Assembly: GCA_964545345.1 (NCBI GenBank) | Contig: CAZJFE010000002.1 | Coordinates: 1-46,171, forward strand | Source of the DNA: an uncultured Candidatus Saccharibacteria bacterium | GTDB taxonomy: Bacteria > Patescibacteriota > Minisyncoccia > UBA6257 > WO2-44-18 | DNA length: 46,171 nucleotides | Direction of reading: 5' to 3' | Shown here: positions 2,551 through 45,764 of the stretch, piece by piece | Layout of the letters: every line of letters starts with the position of its first letter | Numbering within the stretch: the first letter of the stretch is position 1 | The notes under the pieces: model-generated | Told to the model about the DNA's origin: nothing | Databases searched by the model: none | The model's input: only the letters and a program-made list of their open reading frames with translations | Made by a program: the position numbers and the translations under genes

Positions 2551-3397
2551 ATTACTAAAAAATAAAAAGGCAGTAATTACCGGCGGCAGCCGGGGGATCG
2601 GCAAGGTTGTTGCTAAACTCTTTTTGGAAAACGGCGCGGAGGTTTTATTATTTGCCCGGAATTCAAATGAATTATCGGAGGCGCAAAAAGAGTTGTCTGC
2701 TCTGGGGAAGGTTGAGGTTATTGCAGGCGATGTCTCTAATGTTAAAGATGTTGATGAAGTGGCAAAAAAAGCCAAGTCGCTTTGGGGTGAGGCAGATATA
2801 TTGGTTAATGCCGCGGGAATTTATGGTCCGATCGGTCCGGTCACGGAGGTGGACCCAGGAGAGTGGCGTAAGGTTATTGATGTTAACTTGATCGGTACTT
2901 TTTTAATGATTCGGGCGATTGCTCCATTAATGAAGACCAAGAAGATCGGGAAGATCATTAATTTTTCCGGTGGCGGAGAAGCGGCTTTCCCGAACTTTAC
3001 AGGTTATGTAGCTTCCAAGGGTGGCGTGTTGCGATTGAATGAGACCGTGGCGGCCGAGCTGAAGGATTTTAATATTGACGTCAATGCAATCACTCCGGGT
3101 CCGGTTAATACGAAATTTTTAGATGATCTTCTGAAGGCTGGTCCGGAAAAAGTCGGGAAAGATATGTATGACCGTTCCTTAAAGCAAAAGGAAACTGGCG
3201 GGGTGCCACCGGAGAGAGGCGCCGAGCTTTGTTTGTTTTTGGCATCAGCGGCTTCGGACGGAATTAGCGGGAAGATGCTTTCCGCCGTTTGGGACAATTA
3301 TCCGAAACTTCCCGAACATCTTCAGGAACTGATGTCGTCAGATGTTTATACTATGCGCCGGGTGAAGCCGGAGCATCGGGGTATGAAGTTTGATTAA
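2543..3397 (+). CDS. Short-chain dehydrogenase/reductase (classical SDR)
   Basis: KKAVITGGSRGIGK cofactor motif and YVASKGG (YxxxK) catalytic motif. The start overlaps the upstream stop by 8 nt, indicating an operon. Confidence 0.85.
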   Translation: MAELLKNKKAVITGGSRGIGKVVAKLFLENGAEVLLFARNSNELSEAQKELSALGKVEVIAGDVSNVKDVDEVAKKAKSLWGEADILVNAAGIYGPIGPVTEVDPGEWRKVIDVNLIGTFLMIRAIAPLMKTKKIGKIINFSGGGEAAFPNFTGYVASKGGVLRLNETVAAELKDFNIDVNAITPGPVNTKFLDDLLKAGPEKVGKDMYDRSLKQKETGGVPPERGAELCLFLASAASDGISGKMLSAVWDNYPKLPEHLQELMSSDVYTMRRVKPEHRGMKFD

Positions 3398-3420: not shown

Positions 3421-4407
3421 ATGATCATCACTAGAACTCCTTTTCGTGTCACTTTGGGTGGTGGTGGAACTGACCTTCCTTCTTATTACGAAAAATATGG
3501 AGGGTTTATTTTTTCCGCTGGCTTGGATAAATATATGTATATTACTGTTAACCGCGCCTTGGAAGATGATCTAATACGGCTGAAATACTCCAAAACAGAA
3601 ACTGTTGAGCGAGTGGATCAACTGGAGCACGGTATTGCGCGGGAGGCTTTGCGAATGATGGGCATTGATAAGAAAATTGAGATTAGTTCGGTGGCGGATG
3701 TTTCTGCCGGCACCGGCCTCGGATCTTCCAGCTGCTATGCCGTCGGGGTCTTGAACGCTCTGCATACTTTGCGGCGTGATTACGTTTCGTTACAGCAGAT
3801 TGCCGAAGAAGATTTCAAATTGGAGAATCAAATTTTGAAGCGCCCGATCGGTAAACAAGATCCATATTTGGCGGCTTTTGGAGGGTTGACGGTTTTAGAT
3901 ATCGCTAAGGATGGGAAGGTTAAAGTCCGCAAGGCGAGTGTTTCTGAAGCTACGGCCGCTGATCTGAATCACAATCTGCTGTTGTTTTTTACCGGCGTGA
4001 CTAGAAGCGCTGATACAATCTTGAAAGAGCAATCCACATCGGTGAAAGATGACAAGAAAAGCGTAGTAGACAGTATGAACTACATTAAAGAATTGGGCTA
4101 TGAAATTTTAGAAGCGGTGGAAAGCGACAATATTTCTGAGGTGGGGCGGCTATTTGATGCCCATTGGCAACATAAGAAGAAAATTTCCAGCAAAATGTCT
4201 AATCCACAGTTTGATAAAATTTATAAGGACGCCAAAGCTAACGGCGCTTTGGGTGGAAAGATTTCCGGAGCGGGCGGCGGCGGTTTTTTCACCTTTTACG
4301 TTGAGAGCGATCACGCGAAGTTCCGGGAAGCGATGAAGAAGTGGGGACTGAAGGAGATGCGCTACAATTTTGATCATGAAGGATCAAAAGTTCTGGTTGA
4401 CTTGTAG
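3421..4407 (+). CDS. hddA: GHMP-family sugar kinase, D-glycero-alpha-D-manno-heptose-7-phosphate kinase-like
   Basis: N-terminus MIITRTPFRVTLGGGGTDLPSYY and GHMP motif GTGLGSSS. It sits among gmhA, gmhB and a nucleotidyltransferase gene. Confidence 0.75.
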   Translation: MIITRTPFRVTLGGGGTDLPSYYEKYGGFIFSAGLDKYMYITVNRALEDDLIRLKYSKTETVERVDQLEHGIAREALRMMGIDKKIEISSVADVSAGTGLGSSSCYAVGVLNALHTLRRDYVSLQQIAEEDFKLENQILKRPIGKQDPYLAAFGGLTVLDIAKDGKVKVRKASVSEATAADLNHNLLLFFTGVTRSADTILKEQSTSVKDDKKSVVDSMNYIKELGYEILEAVESDNISEVGRLFDAHWQHKKKISSKMSNPQFDKIYKDAKANGALGGKISGAGGGGFFTFYVESDHAKFREAMKKWGLKEMRYNFDHEGSKVLVDL

Positions 4408-4443: not shown

Positions 4444-5172
4444 ATGCCTATTAAGATCCACAATCTGAAAATAAAGATTTTCGCCGATGGGGCCGAAAAG
4501 GACGGTATGATTGAGCTCGCAAAAAAGCCATATATTCAAGGCTTTACTACTAACCCTACGTTAATGCGTAAGGCGGGTATTACCGATTATGTAAAATTTG
4601 CCAAAGAGGTTGTTGCCGCAATCCCGGATAAGCCGATTTCTTTTGAAGTTTTTTCCGATGATTTCAAAGAAATGGAGCGGCAGGCGAAAATTATTTCTTC
4701 TTGGGGTAAGAACGTTTATGTAAAAATTCCGATTACCAACACCAAGCGGGAATCGGCGGTGCCTTTAATCGCTAAATTAGTTTCCGCTGGGATCAAAGTG
4801 AATGTTACGGCCGTTTTCACTGTTAAGCAGGTGGAGGAGGTTGCAAAGGTTCTTTCTAAGAAAATTCCTTCAGTTGTTTCAGTTTTTGCAGGCAGAATTG
4901 CGGATGCGGGGTATGATCCTAAGCATTATATGAAAAAAGCGAAAGCGATTCTGGATTCTAACCCCAAAGCGGAGCTTTTGTGGGCTAGTCCTCGGGAGCT
5001 TTGGAACGTCTACCAAGCGCACAAAGTTGGATGCGATATTATTACTGTTCCGCACGACATTCTTAAGAAAATGGAGAAGTTGGGTTACGATCTGGACGAA
5101 TTTTCTCTGGACACCGTGAAAATGTTTTACGAAGATGGCCAGAAAGTCGGTTACACGTTATACGAATCCTAA
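4444..5172 (+). CDS. tal: Transaldolase / fructose-6-phosphate aldolase family protein
   Basis: FADGA...GFTTNPTL and the Schiff-base lysine context NVYVKIPITN. Length 242 aa. Confidence 0.8.
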   Translation: MPIKIHNLKIKIFADGAEKDGMIELAKKPYIQGFTTNPTLMRKAGITDYVKFAKEVVAAIPDKPISFEVFSDDFKEMERQAKIISSWGKNVYVKIPITNTKRESAVPLIAKLVSAGIKVNVTAVFTVKQVEEVAKVLSKKIPSVVSVFAGRIADAGYDPKHYMKKAKAILDSNPKAELLWASPRELWNVYQAHKVGCDIITVPHDILKKMEKLGYDLDEFSLDTVKMFYEDGQKVGYTLYES

Positions 5173-5796: not shown

Positions 5797-6362
5797 AAAC
5801 GGCGAAGGCCGTTTTTTTAGATCGCGATGGCACCCTCATTAAGCAGGTGGAGTTAATGCACAAAATAGCGGACTTGGAAGTTCTGCCGGGAGTCCCAGAA
5901 GCAGTTGCCCAATTAAACCAGTTGGGTTTCTTGACGGTCATTGTTACCAACCAACCGGTAGTGGCTCGCGGCGTTGCGACGCCGGGGGATATTGAAAAAG
6001 TAAATACCGAATTACTTAAACGTCTCGCGGTTGGCGGTGGGAAAGTTGATGCGGTTTATTTTTGCCCACACCACCCCGAGGCAACCCTTGAGCAATATCG
6101 TGTTGTTTGCGATTGCCGAAAGCCGGAGCCGGGAATGATTTTGAATGGGATCAAGGAATTCAATATTGATCCAAGGCAGAGCTTTATGATTGGGGATGCG
6201 ATTATTGATATAGTGGCTGGCCAAAAAGCGGGTTTAAAAACTATTTTGGTGAAAAGCGGCCCTGGGCATTCCGGCTTGGACAAAAAATATCCCGATGTTC
6301 ATCCGGATTGGGAGGCGGCCGATCTTAGCGAAGCGGTTGAAATTATTAGTCGTCAGTCGTAA
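5760..6362 (+). CDS. gmhB: D,D-heptose 1,7-bisphosphate phosphatase (HAD-IIIA)
   Basis: VFLDRDGTLI motif I, the CPHHP...CDCRKPEPGM zinc/HAD-IIIA signature and a GDAIIDI motif. It overlaps the gmhA 3' end by 37 nt. Confidence 0.8.
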   Translation: MGNSAKTNQPRLETAKAVFLDRDGTLIKQVELMHKIADLEVLPGVPEAVAQLNQLGFLTVIVTNQPVVARGVATPGDIEKVNTELLKRLAVGGGKVDAVYFCPHHPEATLEQYRVVCDCRKPEPGMILNGIKEFNIDPRQSFMIGDAIIDIVAGQKAGLKTILVKSGPGHSGLDKKYPDVHPDWEAADLSEAVEIISRQS

Positions 6363-6382
6363 GTTGGTAGTTATAAGTTATG
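6348..6382 (+). repeat. Tandem heptanucleotide repeat, 5 units (AGTCGTC AGTCGTA AGTTGGT AGTTATA AGTTATG) spanning the gmhB stop and the next start codon
   Basis: Period-7 register read directly from the sequence. The TAA stop (6360-6362) and the ATG (6380-6382) both lie inside units. Confidence 0.8.
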
Positions 6383-9605: not shown

Positions 9606-9953
9606 ATGAAAAGCATCGGAATAGACATTGTTGAAGTAAAAAGATTTCGAAATGTCCCATACAAAAAGGGCAGCGTTTTTTATTCCAAAATCTTCAGCGA
9701 TGCCGAAATCAAATATTGTTTATCTAAAGATGACCCCTACCCGCACTTCGCCGCGCGCTTCGCCGCGAAAGAAGCGGTTTTGAAGTGTTTGAAGAGCACA
9801 ATCTATAAAATAAAGGAGGTGGAGATTCTTAACGATAAGAAGGGCGTTCCGTTTGTCCGACTTCACGGTCGTAAGTCGTTAGTCGTTAGTCGTTTCTTGA
9901 TTTCGCTATCGCACACTAAAGATCAGGCCGCCGCCATCGCATTCTTACAATGA
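9606..9953 (+). CDS. acpS: Holo-[acyl-carrier-protein] synthase (4'-phosphopantetheinyl transferase)
   Basis: IGIDIVEVKRF, FAARFAAKEAVLKC and ISLSHT motifs. Length 115 aa. Confidence 0.85.
   Translation: MKSIGIDIVEVKRFRNVPYKKGSVFYSKIFSDAEIKYCLSKDDPYPHFAARFAAKEAVLKCLKSTIYKIKEVEILNDKKGVPFVRLHGRKSLVVSRFLISLSHTKDQAAAIAFLQ
9867..9894 (+). repeat. Tandem heptanucleotide repeat inside acpS (GGTCGTA AGTCGTT AGTCGTT AGTCGTT)
   Basis: Read directly from the sequence. It encodes RKSLVVSRF. The stop triplets created by the repeat (9872, 9880, 9887) all fall in the two non-coding frames. Confidence 0.8.
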
Positions 9954-13896: not shown

Positions 13897-14621
13897 TGGC
13901 AAAAATTTTGGGAGTTATCACCGCGCGGGGTGGCTCTAAGGGAATCCCGGGTAAAAACATTAAGCCGCTGTTAGGTAAGCCGTTAATCGCTTACACGATT
14001 GAAGCCGCCAAAGCATCAAGCGTGGTTGATCGTTTGATTCTTTCTACCGACGATCTGGAAATTGCTGAAGTGGCGAAGCAATACGGTTGTGAGGTCCCAT
14101 TTATTCGTCCAGCTGACATCGCCGACGATAAAGCCGCGCATTTACCGGTATTGCAACACGCGATTAAAGCTTTGAAAGAAAAGGACGGTTATGAGCCGGA
14201 CTATGTTTTGTTGCTCCAACCGACCTCTCCGGCCCGGCAATCCTTTCATATCAAGGAAGCCGTGGAGTTGATAGAGAAAAGCGGCGCGGATTCCGTTTTG
14301 AGCGTGGCGGAAATCCCGGAGAATTTTCATTACAAGAAAGCGATGGCCGTTAATGAAGATGGAGTTTTGCGGTTAGTTAAGGATTCCGGGCCAATTTATA
14401 ACCGAGTGGCCCGTCGCCAAGATTTGGAAAAAAACTACTGGAGCGTTGGTTCTATTTATCTTTTCAAAACTAGTTTGTTGTTTGATCAGGTAAAGCCGAA
14501 TTTTTATGGCGAAAAAACTATGCCCTACGTGATAGACGCGAAGTATGTCGTGGATATTAATGTTCCCGCGGATTGGGAAGTGGCCGAAAAAGTGATCAAA
14601 CGACTAACGACTAACGACTAA
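13896..14621 (+). CDS. neuA: Acylneuraminate (nonulosonate) cytidylyltransferase
   Basis: ITARGGSKGIPGKNIKPLLGKPLIAYTIEAA is the CMP-NulO synthetase N-terminal signature. The start overlaps the neuC stop. Confidence 0.85.
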   Translation: MAKILGVITARGGSKGIPGKNIKPLLGKPLIAYTIEAAKASSVVDRLILSTDDLEIAEVAKQYGCEVPFIRPADIADDKAAHLPVLQHAIKALKEKDGYEPDYVLLLQPTSPARQSFHIKEAVELIEKSGADSVLSVAEIPENFHYKKAMAVNEDGVLRLVKDSGPIYNRVARRQDLEKNYWSVGSIYLFKTSLLFDQVKPNFYGEKTMPYVIDAKYVVDINVPADWEVAEKVIKRLTTND

Positions 14622-14626
14622 CGACT
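14599..14626 (+). repeat. Perfect tandem heptanucleotide repeat (AACGACT)x4, containing the neuA stop and abutting the next ATG
   Basis: Four exact units. It is the reverse complement of the AGTCGTT repeat found at the other loci. TAA recurs every 7 nt, so stops occur in all three frames. The ATG at 14627 follows immediately. Confidence 0.9.
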
Positions 14627-15562
14627 ATGAAAATTTTAATTACCGAGCCGCAGGATTATTCCAAGAAAGCTGTTGAGATGTATAAATCTCACGGCGATGT
14701 GGTTTTAGGTGGTGAGCCGGACGCGGAGACGGGGGTGATAGCGATTCGGTTAAAACACAAGATTGATAAGAGCTGGATGGATAAAATGCCGAATTTAAAA
14801 ATTATTGCTTCACCAACTACCGGATTGAATCACATAGATATCGCCGAGGCGGAGAAGCGGGGCATTAAATTGATCACTTTACGTGGACATACCGACTTTT
14901 TGGATAAGATCACTTCTACCGCCGAAGAAACTTTGGGATTGATACTGGCTCTAGTTCGCAAGATTCCGCAAGCGCACGAGCATGTTAAGGGCGGAGGATG
15001 GAATCGCGACGCTTTCCGAGGTTATCAGTTGGCCGGTCAAACACTCGGCATATTAGGATTGGGTCGGCTTGGTCGGATGGTGGCGCGTTATGCAAAATCA
15101 ATGGACATGAAAGTAGTCGCCGCTGATCCCGGTATTACCGGAGAGGAAATGAGCAAGCAAGGAGTAACAAAAGTTAGCCACGAAGAATTATTCAAAAATT
15201 CCGACATTCTTTCTTTGCACGTGATGTTGACCGATAATACTAAGAATTTAGTGAAAGAGGGAGATTTGAAGTTAATGAAGCCGTCGGCTTTGTTAGTGAA
15301 TACGGCTCGGGCGGAAATTATGGAAAAGGGAGCTTTAGAAAAAGCATTGAGAGAAAAATGGATCGCCGGGGCGGCGGTAGATGTGATGTGGGACGAAGAG
15401 GGTAGTGGCGCGCATTTGGCCAAGAGTGAACTCTGGGATATGGCAAAAAGCGGTCAGCATAATTTGATTATCGTTCCGCATATCGGGGGCGCCACTTATG
15501 ACGCCATGCAAATCACCGAAGAATTTATCGCCGATTTAGTGAAAAAAGAATTAACAAAGTAA
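14627..15562 (+). CDS. D-isomer-specific 2-hydroxyacid dehydrogenase, NAD-binding
   Basis: GILGLGRLGRMVARY dinucleotide motif and the catalytic-His context VPHIGGAT. Length 311 aa. Confidence 0.8.
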   Translation: MKILITEPQDYSKKAVEMYKSHGDVVLGGEPDAETGVIAIRLKHKIDKSWMDKMPNLKIIASPTTGLNHIDIAEAEKRGIKLITLRGHTDFLDKITSTAEETLGLILALVRKIPQAHEHVKGGGWNRDAFRGYQLAGQTLGILGLGRLGRMVARYAKSMDMKVVAADPGITGEEMSKQGVTKVSHEELFKNSDILSLHVMLTDNTKNLVKEGDLKLMKPSALLVNTARAEIMEKGALEKALREKWIAGAAVDVMWDEEGSGAHLAKSELWDMAKSGQHNLIIVPHIGGATYDAMQITEEFIADLVKKELTK

Positions 15563-30988: not shown

Positions 30989-32587
30989 ATGGAGAAAATG
31001 TCCAAGAAAAGCGAAAAAGAGGTTGAGTTTCTGAAAAATCTGGAGGATCAGTTTGAAAAAGCTAAGCCGGTCAAGGAAGTCGCCGACAAGCTTTCGGAGC
31101 ATGGATTTGAGGCCTATCTCGTGGGCGGTTGCCTGCGCGATCTTTTGCTTGGGAAAACTCCTAAAGATTGGGATCTAACCACCGATGCCAAACCGGAAGA
31201 AATTCTGAAGGTTTTCCCGGATAGTGTTTATGAAAACCAGTTTGGCACGGTTGGAGTGAAAACTCGGTCTGATGATCCGGCAATGGCGTTGGTGGAGGTG
31301 ACTACTTTTCGGAAGGAAGGGAAGTATACCGATAAGCGGCATCCGGACGAAATTACTTTTGCAAAAACTGTTGAAGAAGATCTTTCCCGGCGTGATTTTA
31401 CTATCAACGCGATGGCTTACTTGGTGCATCCTGATAAGCGCCGCGCCGAAGGTTTAGTGGATCCGTTTGGCGGTAGGAAAGATTTAGAAGATGGGGTGAT
31501 CCGGGCGGTTGGAGAGCCAAAGGAGCGGTTTGAGGAAGACGCGCTTCGTTTGATGCGAGCTGTCCGATTCGCCGGCCGATTGGGTTTTTCTGTTGAGGAA
31601 AAAACCGCCCAGGCGATTAAAGAAAAAGCCGGTTTGTTGGAATTTATCGCCAAAGAGAGAATTCGGGAAGAATTCTGCAAGTTAGTAATGACCGACAACG
31701 CGGCCGAAGGAGTGCGTCGCATGGAAGAGCTGGATCTGTTGCGTTATGTGATGCCGGAATTACGCGAGGGCGTCGGGATGGATCAGAACATGCACCATGT
31801 CTACACTGTCTTTGAGCACAACGTTAACGCGATGGCTTACGCGGCGGATGAAAAATTTCCGCTGTATCTTCGTCTGGCGGCTTTATTGCACGACGTAGGC
31901 AAACCGAAATCTCGCGAGTGGAAGGCGAAGCCCACAGGCACTCGAACGCATAATGGGCAAAAAGGCGAGTGGACCTTTCTTCAGCACCAATATATCGGAA
32001 AGAAAATGGTGATCCCGATGTTGGATAAACTAAAGTTCCCTAAAAAAGAGATTGAAAAAATCGCTCTTTTGGTGCGCGAGCATATGTTCGCTTTTGACGC
32101 GGATCTGGGAACCGCTCGGGGCGCGCGCCGTTTTGTGAACCGAGTCGGTCAGGATAATGTTGAGGATTTGATGAAGCTACGCGAGTGTGATCGTATCGGC
32201 TCGGGCACTGAAGTGGCGGTGCCGATGCGTCTTCGTAAATTTAAGGCGATGATTGAGATCGCCATGAAGGATCCGATTAGCGCCAAAACCTTGAAGATTA
32301 ACGGCGGGGACGTTATGAAATTGTTGAAGATTACTCCCGGGCCGAAAGTTGGCGCGGTTTTGGCTGTGCTTCTTGAAAAAGTTTTGGATAATCCGAAGCT
32401 CAACGAGAAGGCCAAGCTTTTAAAAGAGGCGGAGAAGTTGGGGAAATTAGACGACAAAGAACTTTTGGGATTGCGGGAAAAAGCTAGGAAAGAAATAGAA
32501 GAGGCGCAGAAAAGAGTTGACGAAGGGGTAATGGACCAGTATGGTGTTAAGGGTCCGATGGCTAGACCTCCAAAGAGGAAAAAGTAA
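30989..32587 (+). CDS. cca: CCA-adding tRNA nucleotidyltransferase with HD domain
   Basis: YLVGGCLRDLLLGKTPKDWDLTT, RDFTINAMA, and an HD region LHDVGKP. Length 532 aa. Confidence 0.85.
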   Translation: MEKMSKKSEKEVEFLKNLEDQFEKAKPVKEVADKLSEHGFEAYLVGGCLRDLLLGKTPKDWDLTTDAKPEEILKVFPDSVYENQFGTVGVKTRSDDPAMALVEVTTFRKEGKYTDKRHPDEITFAKTVEEDLSRRDFTINAMAYLVHPDKRRAEGLVDPFGGRKDLEDGVIRAVGEPKERFEEDALRLMRAVRFAGRLGFSVEEKTAQAIKEKAGLLEFIAKERIREEFCKLVMTDNAAEGVRRMEELDLLRYVMPELREGVGMDQNMHHVYTVFEHNVNAMAYAADEKFPLYLRLAALLHDVGKPKSREWKAKPTGTRTHNGQKGEWTFLQHQYIGKKMVIPMLDKLKFPKKEIEKIALLVREHMFAFDADLGTARGARRFVNRVGQDNVEDLMKLRECDRIGSGTEVAVPMRLRKFKAMIEIAMKDPISAKTLKINGGDVMKLLKITPGPKVGAVLAVLLEKVLDNPKLNEKAKLLKEAEKLGKLDDKELLGLREKARKEIEEAQKRVDEGVMDQYGVKGPMARPPKRKK

Positions 32588-32589
32588 GT

Positions 32590-32738
32590 TTGCGGGCTGT
32601 AAGCAAAGCTTTCGGCCCATCACTCGGAGAAAGCGCACAAGTAAGCTTGTCCGATTCTCCTTCGTTCGGGCTGTAAGCAGAGCTTGCAGCCCATCATTCG
32701 GAAGAAGCGTACAAGCGAGCTAGTACGATCTTCCTTCA
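32590..32738 (+). repeat. Two tandem 74-75-nt units, each folding into two hairpins, sharing the 5' sequence TTCGGGCTGTA with the tRNA that follows
   Basis: Unit A spans 32590-32664 and unit B 32665-32738, about 80 percent identical. The stem of hairpin 2 changes GGAGAA/TTCTCC to GGAAGA/TCTTCC, which is compensatory. Confidence 0.7.
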
Positions 32739-32740
32739 TT

Positions 32741-32919
32741 CGGGCTGTAGTATATCGGCAGTACACACGCCCCGCCCCCACACCAAAATTTCGGAGAGTA
32801 GTATATCGGCAGTACACACGCTTCGGGTGCGTGAAGGCCGGGTTCGATTCCCGGCTCTCCGACGGTGTGGTGTGGGGGTGAAGGTGCGTGAGGGCTGGGT
32901 TCGATTCCCAGCAGCCCGA
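32741..32919 (+). tRNA. Interrupted tRNA-Pro-like gene (outer): intact acceptor, D, anticodon-stem and T arms, but 115 nt in place of the 7-nt anticodon loop
   Basis: The 5' part is CGGGCTG TA GTAT ATCGGCA GTAC A CACGC (32741-32770). The 3' part is GCGTG AGGG CTGGG TTCGATT CCCAG CAGCCCG A (32886-32919). C1-G72 and A73 match the Pro signature. No identifiable NGG loop. Confidence 0.6.
32792..32862 (+). tRNA. tRNA-Pro (anticodon CGG), 71 nt, no encoded CCA
   Basis: Manual cloverleaf: CGGAGAG/CTCTCCG acceptor, D arm GTAT-ATCGGCA-GTAC, anticodon arm CACGC-TTCGGGT-GCGTG, 4-nt variable loop, T arm CCGGG-TTCGATT-CCCGG, and A73. Confidence 0.85.
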
Positions 32920-32930
32920 CTAAACAAAAG

Positions 32931-32950
32931 CAGGCCCTATGGCCTGTTTT
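32931..32950 (+). terminator. Rho-independent terminator after the tRNA locus
   Basis: CAGGCC CTAT GGCCTG hairpin followed by TTTT. Confidence 0.75.
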
Positions 32951-33022
32951 TGTTTGCTGCCTCTATCCGTAATCTGTTAGACTGTGGGCGTTCTTTGAAA
33001 TTATTAGAAAGAGAGGCCTTCC

Positions 33023-45122: not shown

Positions 45123-45764
45123 ATGCAAGTAATTCCCGGTATAGAAGGAGCGGATGCCGAATCCGTCAAAGAGCAATATGAGAAAGTTAAAGATTTGAAT
45201 CCTGATGGTTGGGTTCATTTAGATATTACCGACGGAAAGTTTACACCGGCGGTGAATTGGGGCTCGCCAGAAGGGCTTAAGTCCTTAGTCCCTAGTCGTA
45301 AGTCGTTAGTCGAGCTACACCTGATGGTGGAGGATGTGGAAAAATCTATAGATAGTTGGTTGAAGACAGGACTGATCAAGCGGGTGATTGTTCACCTAGA
45401 GGCGATGTCTGATCCGGTTTTTGTGATTCAAAAATGTAAGGAATATGAAGTTGAGCCGATGTTAGCAATTAAGCCGGAGACGGAGGTTGAGCGTTTATTC
45501 GCGCACAAAGATGATTTTCGCGCTTTTCAGATCTTGGCGGTTAATCCGGGTTGGTCGGGTCAGAAGTTTAATGAGGATTCTTTGGCAAAAATAGAGTGGA
45601 TTAAGGCCAAAATACCGAATGCTATAATAGAAATAGACGGGGGCGTCAATCCGGAGGTAGCTAGGAAGTGTTACCAGGCCGGAGCAAACGTCTTAATCTC
45701 AACTTCTTATATCCAAAAGAGCCAGAGTCCTCAAGATGCATACAAGGAACTATTCAATGATTGA
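45123..45764 (+). CDS. rpe: Ribulose-phosphate 3-epimerase
   Basis: HLDITDGKFTP, ELHLMV, AVNPGWSGQKF and EIDGGVN motifs. Length 213 aa. Confidence 0.85.
   Translation: MQVIPGIEGADAESVKEQYEKVKDLNPDGWVHLDITDGKFTPAVNWGSPEGLKSLVPSRKSLVELHLMVEDVEKSIDSWLKTGLIKRVIVHLEAMSDPVFVIQKCKEYEVEPMLAIKPETEVERLFAHKDDFRAFQILAVNPGWSGQKFNEDSLAKIEWIKAKIPNAIIEIDGGVNPEVARKCYQAGANVLISTSYIQKSQSPQDAYKELFND
45280..45314 (+). repeat. Tandem heptanucleotide repeat inside rpe (AGTCCTT AGTCCCT AGTCGTA AGTCGTT AGTCGAG)
   Basis: Read directly from the sequence. It encodes KSLVPSRKSLVE. The repeat-generated stop triplets (45286, 45293, 45299, 45307) all avoid the coding frame. Confidence 0.8.

Follow-up and report, generated by a model that had tools for sequence, protein, structure and literature searches.

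Organization of the cca–tRNA-Pro locus

The window analysed here is the whole 46,171-nucleotide (nt) stretch of contig CAZJFE010000002.1, from an uncultured Candidatus Saccharibacteria bacterium. The element in question is a pair of tandem, tRNA-sized units (A and B) that lie between cca, which encodes the CCA-adding enzyme, and two nested tRNA-Pro genes. Each unit is made of two hairpin modules, and the locus reads as follows.

30989..32587, + strand: cca, class II CCA-adding enzyme with an HD domain, 532 amino acids, stop codon TAA at 32585-32587 (open reading frame and translation)
32593..32624, + strand: module m1, hairpin 1 of unit A; folds by itself, −14.8 kcal/mol, z −4.2
32625..32666, + strand: module m2, hairpin 2 of unit A; folds by itself, −13.5 kcal/mol, z −3.0
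32667..32698, + strand: module m3, hairpin 1 of unit B; folds by itself, −20.2 kcal/mol, z −6.2
32699..32740, + strand: module m4, hairpin 2 of unit B; folds by itself, −14.0 kcal/mol, z −3.3
32741..32774, + strand: 5′ half of the outer (interrupted) tRNA-Pro(CGG), with acceptor strand CGGGCTG, D arm, 5′ strand of the anticodon stem and loop nucleotides CCCG
32775..32882, + strand: 108-nt insert in the outer anticodon loop, made of helix strand CCCCCACACC, the inner tRNA and helix strand GGTGTGGGGG; inverted repeats
32792-32862, + strand: inner tRNA-Pro(CGG), complete (ARAGORN and Rfam, 54.9 bits)
32883..32919, + strand: 3′ half of the outer tRNA-Pro, with loop nucleotides GGT, 3′ strand of the anticodon stem, T arm, acceptor strand CAGCCCG and discriminator A
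32922..32955, + strand: terminator-like hairpin with 15-nt arms, 93% complementary, and a T-run; the sole one after cca

Homologues of the cca product carry PF01743, PF12627, PF01966 and PF13735 and are annotated as CCA tRNA nucleotidyltransferase; all of them come from metagenome-assembled genomes of groundwater bacteria of the Candidate Phyla Radiation (CPR)/Patescibacteria (Parcubacteria-type). The sequencing runs that contain the window region are groundwater metagenomes. An assembly artefact can be discounted, since Logan unitigs from two of these runs, X1 (at a depth of about 18-19) and X2 (at about 4), reproduce 32497-32846 without any difference. The exact sequence of the units is known solely from these two runs, which represent one study and one aquifer population.

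The preliminary description of this DNA had reported that no terminator separates cca from the tRNAs, and indeed no terminator-like site was found on the + strand at 32588-32920, upstream of the hairpin and T-run at 32922-32955. It was also right that neither tRNA encodes CCA: the inner tRNA ends in ...CTCTCCGA followed by CGG, and the outer tRNA in ...CAGCCCGA followed by CTA. Within the clade, the 3′ ends of tRNA-Pro genes (noted in L010, L014, L017, L053 and L124) differ: some of the genes encode CCA (…CCGACCA), and others, among them those of the window and its close relatives, do not.

Tandem units and their four modules

Tandem Repeats Finder assigns 32593-32749 a period of 74, with 2.1 copies, 83% matches and a score of 216, and a repeat search aligns 32593-32666 with 32667-32740 as two 74-nt copies, head to tail, gapless and 81% identical. 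This agrees with the earlier report of two tandem units about 80 percent identical, and the same holds for the 11 nt said to be shared by the start of each unit and the start of the outer tRNA: TTCGGGCTGTA occurs at 32665 and again at 32739, and its counterpart in unit A is TTGCGGGCTGTA at 32590. The first 9-11 nt of the interrupted outer tRNA-Pro form a third, partial copy of the repeat.

The natural sub-unit is a single hairpin with a 6-nt spacer, so that the array is composed of four modules and not of two indivisible units. Each module has the same form, in which CGG follows a T, the hairpin closes with CC, and the spacer (A/T)TC(A/G)(C/T)T leads to the next CGG. Module m1 consists of CGGGCTGTA (nucleotides 1-9 of the outer tRNA), the core AGCAAAGCTT, TCGGCCC (tRNA nucleotides 65-71 with two changes) and ATCACT; written as a stem it is CGGGCTGTAAGC-AAA-GCTTTCGGCCC, then ATCACT. 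Module m3 is CGGGCTGTAAGC-AGA-GCTTGCAGCCC, with 11 pairs, and is followed by the spacer ATCATT. The arms of hairpin 1 are those of a CGGGCTG-type tRNA-Pro, nucleotides 1-9 and 65-71, with a short core between them. G65 lies opposite U8 in a G·U pair, which indicates that this arm copies the tRNA and is not a mere complement of the other arm. Module m2 has the arms CGGAGAA...TTCTCC, an irregular inner stem and the spacer TTCGTT, and m4 has the arms CGGAAGA...TCTTCC and the spacer TTCATT, which adjoins C1 of the outer tRNA. The arms of hairpin 2 are like the acceptor of the CGGAGAG-type inner tRNA, as had been noticed from the first for the 5′ strand CGGAGAA; the m2 arm type and its spacer TTCGTT are common to the module of a related locus, L115, described below.

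Hairpin 1 had been described as an 11-base-pair (bp) minihelix that reuses both strands of the outer acceptor stem and has the geometry of an acceptor/T minihelix. Both acceptor strands (nucleotides 1-9 and 65-71) are indeed reused, but the 11 pairs, 10 Watson-Crick and one G·U, exist in unit B only; in unit A, a T·T mismatch and a G·U occur in this hairpin (10 pairs and one mismatch). The likeness in geometry is only loose. An acceptor/T minihelix has a 12-bp stem (7 acceptor and 5 T-stem pairs) and a 7-nt T-loop, and it had to be rejected as a description of these hairpins: the loop of hairpin 1 is 3 nt (AAA or AGA), hairpin 2 is composed of 6 pairs, an internal loop and 5-7 pairs, and no T-loop motif (TTCRANY) is found in the unit hairpins. 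C1 faces A in hairpin 1 and T in hairpin 2, so that either pair 1:72 is mismatched or the helix begins at G2; the 'unpaired A' of the preliminary description is the nucleotide that C1 faces.

Other identities for the units were tried and rejected. First, no tRNA cloverleaf was detected in the segment 32560-32760, neither by ARAGORN with its threshold lowered nor by Rfam at E<=10, and no Rfam family matches the units at the gathering threshold or at E<=10. A coding function is rejected because the 74-nt period breaks the frame and only spurious overlapping open reading frames are present. The hairpins are not intrinsic terminators, as they are followed by ATCAYT or TTCRTT and not by a U-run. 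An array like those of clustered regularly interspaced short palindromic repeats does not fit just two copies that are contiguous, spacerless and tRNA-derived. A dispersed repeat, resembling repetitive extragenic palindromes (REP) or miniature inverted-repeat transposable elements, is rejected for the sequence covered, since neither the 46-kb window nor 125 related loci nor the viral contigs contain a second copy; likewise, no further copy came up when the window and 36 loci were searched with the units by blastn. Finally, an integrase att-site duplication is excluded by the 65 nt between repeats, the lack of an integrase and the unchanged gene order.

Folding and conservation of pairing

Each unit folds into two hairpins, unit A with −28.3 kcal/mol (z −3.6) and unit B with −34.2 kcal/mol (z −5.5), and none of 200 shuffled controls folded as well. 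When the four hairpins are folded singly, their z values lie between −3.0 and −6.2, and C1 and the 6-nt tail are unpaired. Although 14 of the 74 positions differ between the two units, 23/25 and 24/25 pairs remain. At least 24 pairs were retained in just 0.02% of 200,000 random trials with 14 substitutions (P about 2e-4), which makes the case for selection on the pairing stronger than the preliminary description could show. The two compensatory changes that it had pointed out in hairpin 2, GGAGAA/TTCTCC to GGAAGA/TCTTCC, are at the adjacent pairs 37/65 (GC to AT) and 38/64 (AT to GC) and are fully compensated; furthermore, a C·C mismatch in unit A is a T-A pair in unit B.

The alignments with other loci are small, and any covariation in them is tentative. 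For hairpin 1, with only three sequences, 93.9% of the cells are paired and three pairs are changed on both sides, a result that 22 of 500 shuffles match, and the four-sequence unit alignment, which likewise holds few sequences, has both-side changes in 4 of 11 consensus pairs; in both alignments the arm changes mirror the neighbouring tRNA. The wobble cells of the hairpin-1 alignment comprise four G·U on the + strand and no A·C, and unit B folds 4 kcal/mol less stably as the − strand; together these two features point to + strand RNA. DNA-level quasi-palindrome correction may be an alternative source of the kept pairing. The evidence for structural constraint on the units and for selection on the pairing is genuine.

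These data bear on the view that the units are purely neutral debris, that is, recent duplications of tRNA fragments under zero constraint. Such debris would fit the lineage specificity of the units, the relics that crowd the locus, the strain variant with a partial deletion and the origin of the exact sequence from a single aquifer population, all described in this text. It does not fit the pairs kept despite 19% divergence, given their probability under random substitution, nor the comparable hairpin modules in three other lineages, and we regard it as very unlikely.

Comparison with related loci

The comparison covered 125 related loci and 65-71 distinct tRNA-Pro contexts. The rule in this clade is a tRNA-Pro(CGG) within a few bases after cca. 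In the closest relatives, L001, L037 and L042 (cca 92-93% identical), the cca stop is followed by gtttg (5 nt), a plain CGGGCTG tRNA-Pro(CGG) and a terminator, with no units, and L113 (cca 79%) has a plain tRNA-Pro too. The first module begins exactly where the plain tRNA begins in these relatives; thus, the ancestral layout was simple and the units were added to it. The gene order DsbA-like protein, cca, tRNA and 2-hydroxyacid dehydrogenase is the same as in relatives without units, so no large element or island has entered between the flanking genes.

Variation is also found within run X1. A co-occurring strain is represented by a unitig of 123 nt, which has a depth of 8.7 against about 19 for the main path and carries 8 differences in the last 93 nt of cca. 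This strain joins 32589 to 32647 and has lost 57 nt, which correspond to m1 and the 5′ half of m2, and its breakpoint falls between two imperfect direct repeats, AAGTAAGTTTG and AAGTAAGCTTG. The units are lineage-specific, dispensable and fast-evolving.

Among the tRNA-Pro contexts, window-like modules occur in three other lineages only, L115, L010 and L029, and the units are missing from about 65 others. L115 (cca 74%) has one module, CGGAGAGTAAGCAAATCTTGCTCTTC with the spacer TTCGTT, before a CGGAGAG tRNA that is identical to the inner tRNA of the window. The core of this module, TAAGCAAAtCTTG, is as in the window, and its arms, CGGAGAGTA and GCTCTTC, match the CGGAGAG tRNA of L115 itself. 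Between the hairpin-1 modules of the window and L115, 11/13 nt of the core are common, whereas three arm pairs differ on both sides, mirroring the tRNA acceptor types. In L010 (cca 57%) there are two hairpins, the first of which is built from its own CGGAC(T/C)GTA and CGGTC strands. L029, from Campbellbacteria, has CGGGCGTATC…GATACGTCCC with TCGCT and then CGGAAAATCAG…CTGATTTTCC with TCACT; these modules directly precede a tRNA-Pro(GGG), away from cca and downstream of an unrelated open reading frame. The modules of L010 and L029 have the same design, each with its own acceptor sequence.

A strict module descriptor applied to about 1.3 Mb matched the window and L029 only, always immediately before tRNA-Pro, and the leader spacer TCRYT is present in 3 of 65 tRNA-Pro leaders, exactly the module-bearing ones. 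The hairpin-1 covariance model, run over 565 kb, found the training copies and one weak yet informative match, upstream of the L029 tRNA-Pro(GGG). Looser searches added nothing: a scan for a tRNA's own 7-mer plus its complement gave 6 matches versus 7 in the control, and its lead at L091 proved to be a terminator; the relaxed module descriptor returned only false positives beyond the known loci; and viral contigs scanned for the insert helix and the module core gave chance matches with no tRNA context. Related genomes had been named at the outset as the place to look for conservation of the units and their pairing. Here the pairing is kept and modules are present in L115, L010 and L029, but the units are missing from the closest relatives. 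Taken together, the comparisons show that the units are tRNA-Pro-derived, lineage-specific, structurally conserved and tied to tRNA-Pro rather than to cca.

The preliminary description had suggested a functional link with cca, in which the hairpins may be decoys, autoregulators or processing signals for the CCA enzyme. In the most explicit form of this proposal, the enzyme would bind or extend the hairpins in its own 3′ untranslated region and so tune its expression or buffer its activity. The position immediately 3′ of cca with no terminator would suit such a role, as would the acceptor-stem-like arms followed by A/T-TCA-like tails and the tRNAs without encoded CCA, which make the enzyme essential; class II CCA enzymes can extend minihelices in vitro. 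However, the same architecture stands before the tRNA-Pro(GGG) of L029, far from cca and after an unrelated open reading frame, and dozens of relatives keep the cca–tRNA-Pro adjacency without units (the unit-free contexts number about 65). The sequence of the arms follows the local tRNA-Pro and nothing in cca, and the co-occurring strain lacks the 57 nt. Moreover, the geometry is unlike an acceptor/T minihelix, there seems to be a mismatch at position 72, and only processing would give the RNA a free 3′ end. The proposal is not supported by these observations and appears highly improbable. Among the options that had been listed with it, the comparative data favour decayed tRNA duplications, given the unit-free relatives, the hairpin-1 arms taken from the tRNA and the relic-rich locus. 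The feature is mostly explained as tRNA-linked repeats and relics, and evidence for a CCA-specific role was not found.

Nested tRNA genes and tRNA-Pro relics

When 32775-32882 is removed, joining 32741-32774 to 32883-32919, a 71-nt tRNA-Pro(CGG) is restored (ARAGORN). The 3′ half of this outer tRNA is identical over 37 nt to that of the L001 tRNA, and the outer tRNA is the ancestral gene, orthologous to the plain tRNA of L001, L042 and L113. In the closest relatives (cca 92-93%) the gene is uninterrupted. The window and L114, whose cca genes are only 76% identical, match exactly in the 20-nt left flank and the inner tRNA.

This tRNA-in-tRNA nesting recurs in L008 (about 4506-4686), L047 (about 2323-2510) and L114 (about 2565-2707) and, degraded, in L125 (about 2533-2725). 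In the nested arrangement an older tRNA-Pro contains a complete tRNA-Pro(CGG) within its anticodon loop, and the complete tRNA is enclosed by a covarying helix, CCCC[C/G]CAC…/…GTG[C/G]GGGG, of which the strands are CCCCCACACC/GGTGTGGGGG in the window, CCCCCACACTCAT/ATGAGTGTGGGGG in L008 and CCCCGCACTAAAATT/AATTTTTAGTGCGGGG in L047. In L002 (about 4556-4870) a broken 5′ half of the CGGAGAG type precedes the insert-type helix, whose strands enclose about 120 nt but no tRNA; the complete tRNA of L002 is further on, flanked by a different 14-bp helix. In the anticodon loop the insert is placed after the TTCG of TTCGGGT in L008 and after CCCG in the window. Separately, TT followed by CGGG at the 5′ end of the outer tRNA (32739-32746) and at the m3 junction (32664-32672) equals the anticodon-loop hexamer of the inner tRNA (about 32822-32828). 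The occurrence of TTCGGG both in the junctions and in the insert-bearing anticodon loop may be coincidence or may reflect a common target. Annotation tools call just the inner tRNA of a nested pair, and a literature search for nested tRNAs or tRNA introns in CPR/Patescibacteria found nothing.

The older outer copies have decayed, with C1 changed to T, A58 changed to T, or a 20-nt palindrome in the D-loop or T-loop. This palindrome, CCTGCCTGCCGGCAGGCAGG, interrupts the D-loop of a relic tRNA half in L114 (about 2578-2597) and the T-loop of a relic 3′ half in L125 (about 2683-2702), with more copies upstream of the L125 tRNA (about 2545-2590 region), and it looks like a small mobile palindromic element. 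In addition, orphan 3′ half-tRNAs, consisting of a T arm and an acceptor strand (e.g. GTTCGAATCCTGGGCAACCGA), are found just downstream of intact tRNA-Pro genes at the following positions.

L005, about 4640-4670: orphan 3′ half
L006, about 1815-1845: orphan 3′ half
L009, about 4515-4545: orphan 3′ half
L038, about 4200-4230: orphan 3′ half
L120, about 2838-2870: orphan 3′ half
L017, about 6300-6375: orphan 3′ half

Repeated tRNA 3′ ends are present in L007 and L118. Orphan 3′ halves in this downstream position are what one would expect if the 3′ part of the gene had been replaced repeatedly.

Further elements were seen downstream of tRNA-Pro in the relatives. A reverse-oriented, T-arm-like GC(C/T)GGGAATCGAACC lies past the tRNA-Pro terminator in L118 (2853-3040), L007 (about 4600-4755), L117 (2840-2906) and L001 (2618-2680). 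In L118 and L007 it is followed by a structured segment of 170-200 nt that ends in the tRNA 3′-end repeat (GGCTCCCCGACAAA / GGCAGCCCGACTAAA), and in L118 a second terminator comes after this repeated end; an Rfam search of the relatives' downstream segments matched no family. In L010, tRNA-Pro abuts tRNA-Ala at 3161/3162 with no spacer. Elsewhere in the window there are two heptamer arrays, GTCGTTA x3.9 (9868-9894) and AACGACT x4.1 (14599-14627), which are mutual reverse complements 4.7 kb apart; the AACGACT array ends 2 nt upstream of an ATG (14627). Another short heptamer array, AGTCGTA x2.7, is at 45294-45312.

Another possible reading is that the units are footprints or parts of a process at the DNA level. 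They would then be a mobile or site-specific-recombination module at the 5′ junction of tRNA-Pro, or products of short-repeat slippage, and the arms would be kept complementary by quasi-palindrome template switching and not by selection on RNA. Direct repeats of 9-11 nt (CGGGCTGTA) flank each 65-nt segment, the patchy lineage distribution comes with a common junction motif, and the 57-nt indel lies between AAGTAAGTTTG and AAGTAAGCTTG; in the same vein, CCTGCCTGCCGGCAGGCAGG is clearly inserted in relic-tRNA loops of L114 and L125, a nested insert follows the TTCG of loop TTCGGGT, and the TT–CGGG junction is the same hexamer. Nevertheless, no other copy of the unit or its core is present in the window, the related loci or viral contigs, no recombinase is nearby, gene order is conserved and the units have no terminal inverted repeats. 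The restriction of wobble pairs to G·U also favours pairing in RNA, and an origin purely at the DNA level seems to us distinctly unlikely.

Proposed origin and role of the units

The explanation that we prefer, and to which we give an even chance, is that the modules are internally deleted tRNA-Pro copies, held folded by selection within a cca–tRNA co-transcript and with no dedicated partnership with the CCA enzyme. Each module would be a copy of a tRNA-Pro gene reduced to its two acceptor-stem strands, with a short filler between them and a leader-like spacer of 5-6 nt behind. A pair of modules, one CGGGCTG-type and one CGGAGAG-type, would then have been duplicated in tandem, at a locus where the tRNA-Pro(CGG) gene has probably undergone repeated duplication, replacement and fragmentation. 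It is reasonable to suppose that cca and the tRNA share one transcript, since no terminator lies between them and the cca–tRNA-Pro adjacency is conserved; the modules would thus occupy the untranslated spacer of this probable co-transcript. There, selection would act only for staying folded as local + strand RNA hairpins. A folded relic would sequester its spare acceptor strand and prevent mispairing with the real tRNA, and it may be tolerated only in this state. The hairpins may plausibly also provide the cca message with a structured 3′ end after cleavage by RNase P.

Regarding transcription, a promoter-like TTGACG-17-TATGGT is present at 32517-32545, inside the 3′ end of cca and about 45 nt before the stop; it is kept at the DNA level in L001-L003 and could drive the tRNA independently of cca. 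No conclusion can be drawn from this conservation, as the site overlaps the coding sequence of the conserved peptide DEGVMDQYG.

Sequestration of the spare strand is supported by a thermodynamic model of the L115 precursor. When the 3′ arm of the module is destroyed, the probability of the tRNA acceptor stem decreases from 0.67 to 0.001, and the spare 5′ arm captures the 3′ strand of the tRNA. Several points weigh against this explanation. The same model applied to the window shows no insulation effect, though the pairing is conserved there; insulation is therefore not the whole story in the window, where another structural role or DNA-level quasi-palindrome correction may be involved. The window region is in no RNA run, and transcription, co-transcription with cca and processing are all inferred; runs of RNA related to L029 cover the tRNA body only, with reads from other organisms. 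The spacer motif TC(A/G)(C/T)T followed by CGG is common to all module-bearing loci, whose cca genes are just 48-74% identical. Such a shared junction is unexpected from independent decay and hints at a module family with a function or at a specific generating mechanism. Similarly, the shared core and differing arms of the window and L115 need either selection for a match to the local tRNA or a conversion mechanism of an unknown kind.

The junction motif also speaks for another reading, an active family of RNA elements in tRNA-Pro leaders. The hairpins would be pseudo-substrates of RNase P, cut between T and CGG and possibly trimmed by RNase Z, and this cutting would punctuate the cca–tRNA precursor and leave protective hairpins on the 3′ end of the cca mRNA or on the tRNA leader. 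After every hairpin there is the junction (A/T)TC(A/G)(C/T)T–CGG, with U at −1 and a single-stranded spacer of 5-6 nt; the motif is limited to module-bearing loci, and the strict descriptor finds modules only in the window and L029, always directly 5′ of tRNA-Pro. The conserved pairing with compensatory changes, the G·U pairs on the + strand only and the terminator-free interval from cca to the tRNA would be expected as well. On the other hand, the nearest relatives and most tRNA-Pro loci are without modules, and a natural strain is missing part of unit A. RNase P, RNase Z and CCA enzymes read a 12-bp stem with a T-loop, which is missing here: the stems are either 10-11 bp long and closed by a loop of 3-5 nt, or irregular with about 15 bp. 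An active family of this kind is possible but unlikely.

A broader version of this idea, which we find quite unlikely, is an undescribed family of leader elements in Parcubacteria-type CPR bacteria that mimic the tRNA-Pro acceptor stem and have either an RNA function or a specific generating mechanism. Its members would have the form C-GG hairpin CC, (A/T)TCRYT and CGG, with arms that may be matched to the neighbouring tRNA-Pro through the RNA function. Minihelices released by RNase P and RNase Z might titrate a reader of the tRNA-Pro acceptor end, such as prolyl-tRNA synthetase, the CCA enzyme or a tRNA-targeting toxin. Alternatively, the modules might be made by the same sequence-specific process that places the tRNA-bearing insert in the TTCGGG anticodon loop. 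What keeps this reading alive is the junction motif common to lineages at 48-74% cca identity.

Relation to known systems and significance

Among known systems, there is a close likeness to the tRNA-Tyr locus tyrT of Escherichia coli, where tandem 178-bp repeats distal to the genes were reportedly described around 1980. Each of these repeats is said to start with a copy of a terminal tRNA segment, and the repeats reportedly are generated and reshuffled by unequal recombination and vary in copy number between strains. The present units are tRNA-linked tandem repeats of this type, with a 74-nt unit in 2.1 copies that adjoins a tRNA gene, and each starts with a terminal segment of the tRNA, namely its 5′ segment (nucleotides 1-9 plus TT). 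They differ in several respects. The tyrT repeats carry the 3′ end of the tRNA and are downstream, whereas here the 5′ end is carried upstream; the matching 3′ acceptor strand is present too, so that each copy folds like an acceptor; and the unit is 74 nt and not 178 bp, non-coding, and not a multiple of 3 in length.

Three other systems share some of these features. tRNA genes are targets of integrases, and integration at att sites duplicates the 3′ part of the tRNA. Partial tRNA direct repeats beside an intact gene, and the orphan 3′ halves downstream in many relatives, resemble this outcome, but in the window the 5′ end is repeated, only 65 nt separate the repeats, and there is no integrase or island. 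Acceptor-TΨC minihelices and the tRNA-like hairpins that serve RNase P, RNase Z and CCA-adding enzymes, such as the mascRNA type (RF01684), resemble the modules in that both acceptor strands form the stem, which begins with the 5′ nucleotides of the tRNA itself and comes after U(−1) and a short leader that is single-stranded. The modules differ from them in their 10-11 bp, 3-5-nt loop, missing T-loop, apparently mismatched C1 and lack of an Rfam match at E<=10. Finally, the hairpins of REP and bacterial interspersed mosaic elements protect upstream mRNA from 3′ exonucleases, and REPs occur in hundreds of dispersed copies with a cognate REP-associated tyrosine transposase. Like them, the modules form stable hairpins that lack a U-run, lie in the intercistronic spacer of a probable co-transcript, can be dispensed with and vary in copy number; however, they are found only beside tRNA-Pro and are derived from it.

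If the preferred explanation of internally deleted, folded tRNA-Pro copies is true, the units would be a clean natural case of a duplicated tRNA gene that decays under structural constraint: the interior is lost, but the acceptor strands must stay mutually paired because a working tRNA shares the transcript. If, instead, the minority view of a leader-element family is true, they would be leader RNAs of a new, tRNA-mimicking class, in organisms in which RNA processing has hardly been studied. The cca–tRNA-Pro(CGG) locus of groundwater CPR bacteria is a hotspot of tRNA gene replacement, with nesting, orphan halves and palindromic inserts. Automated annotation calls the inner tRNA alone and misses the nesting, the halves and the inserts. 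The recurrent replacement of tRNA-Pro, with one tRNA nested in another, is a more striking result than the units themselves.

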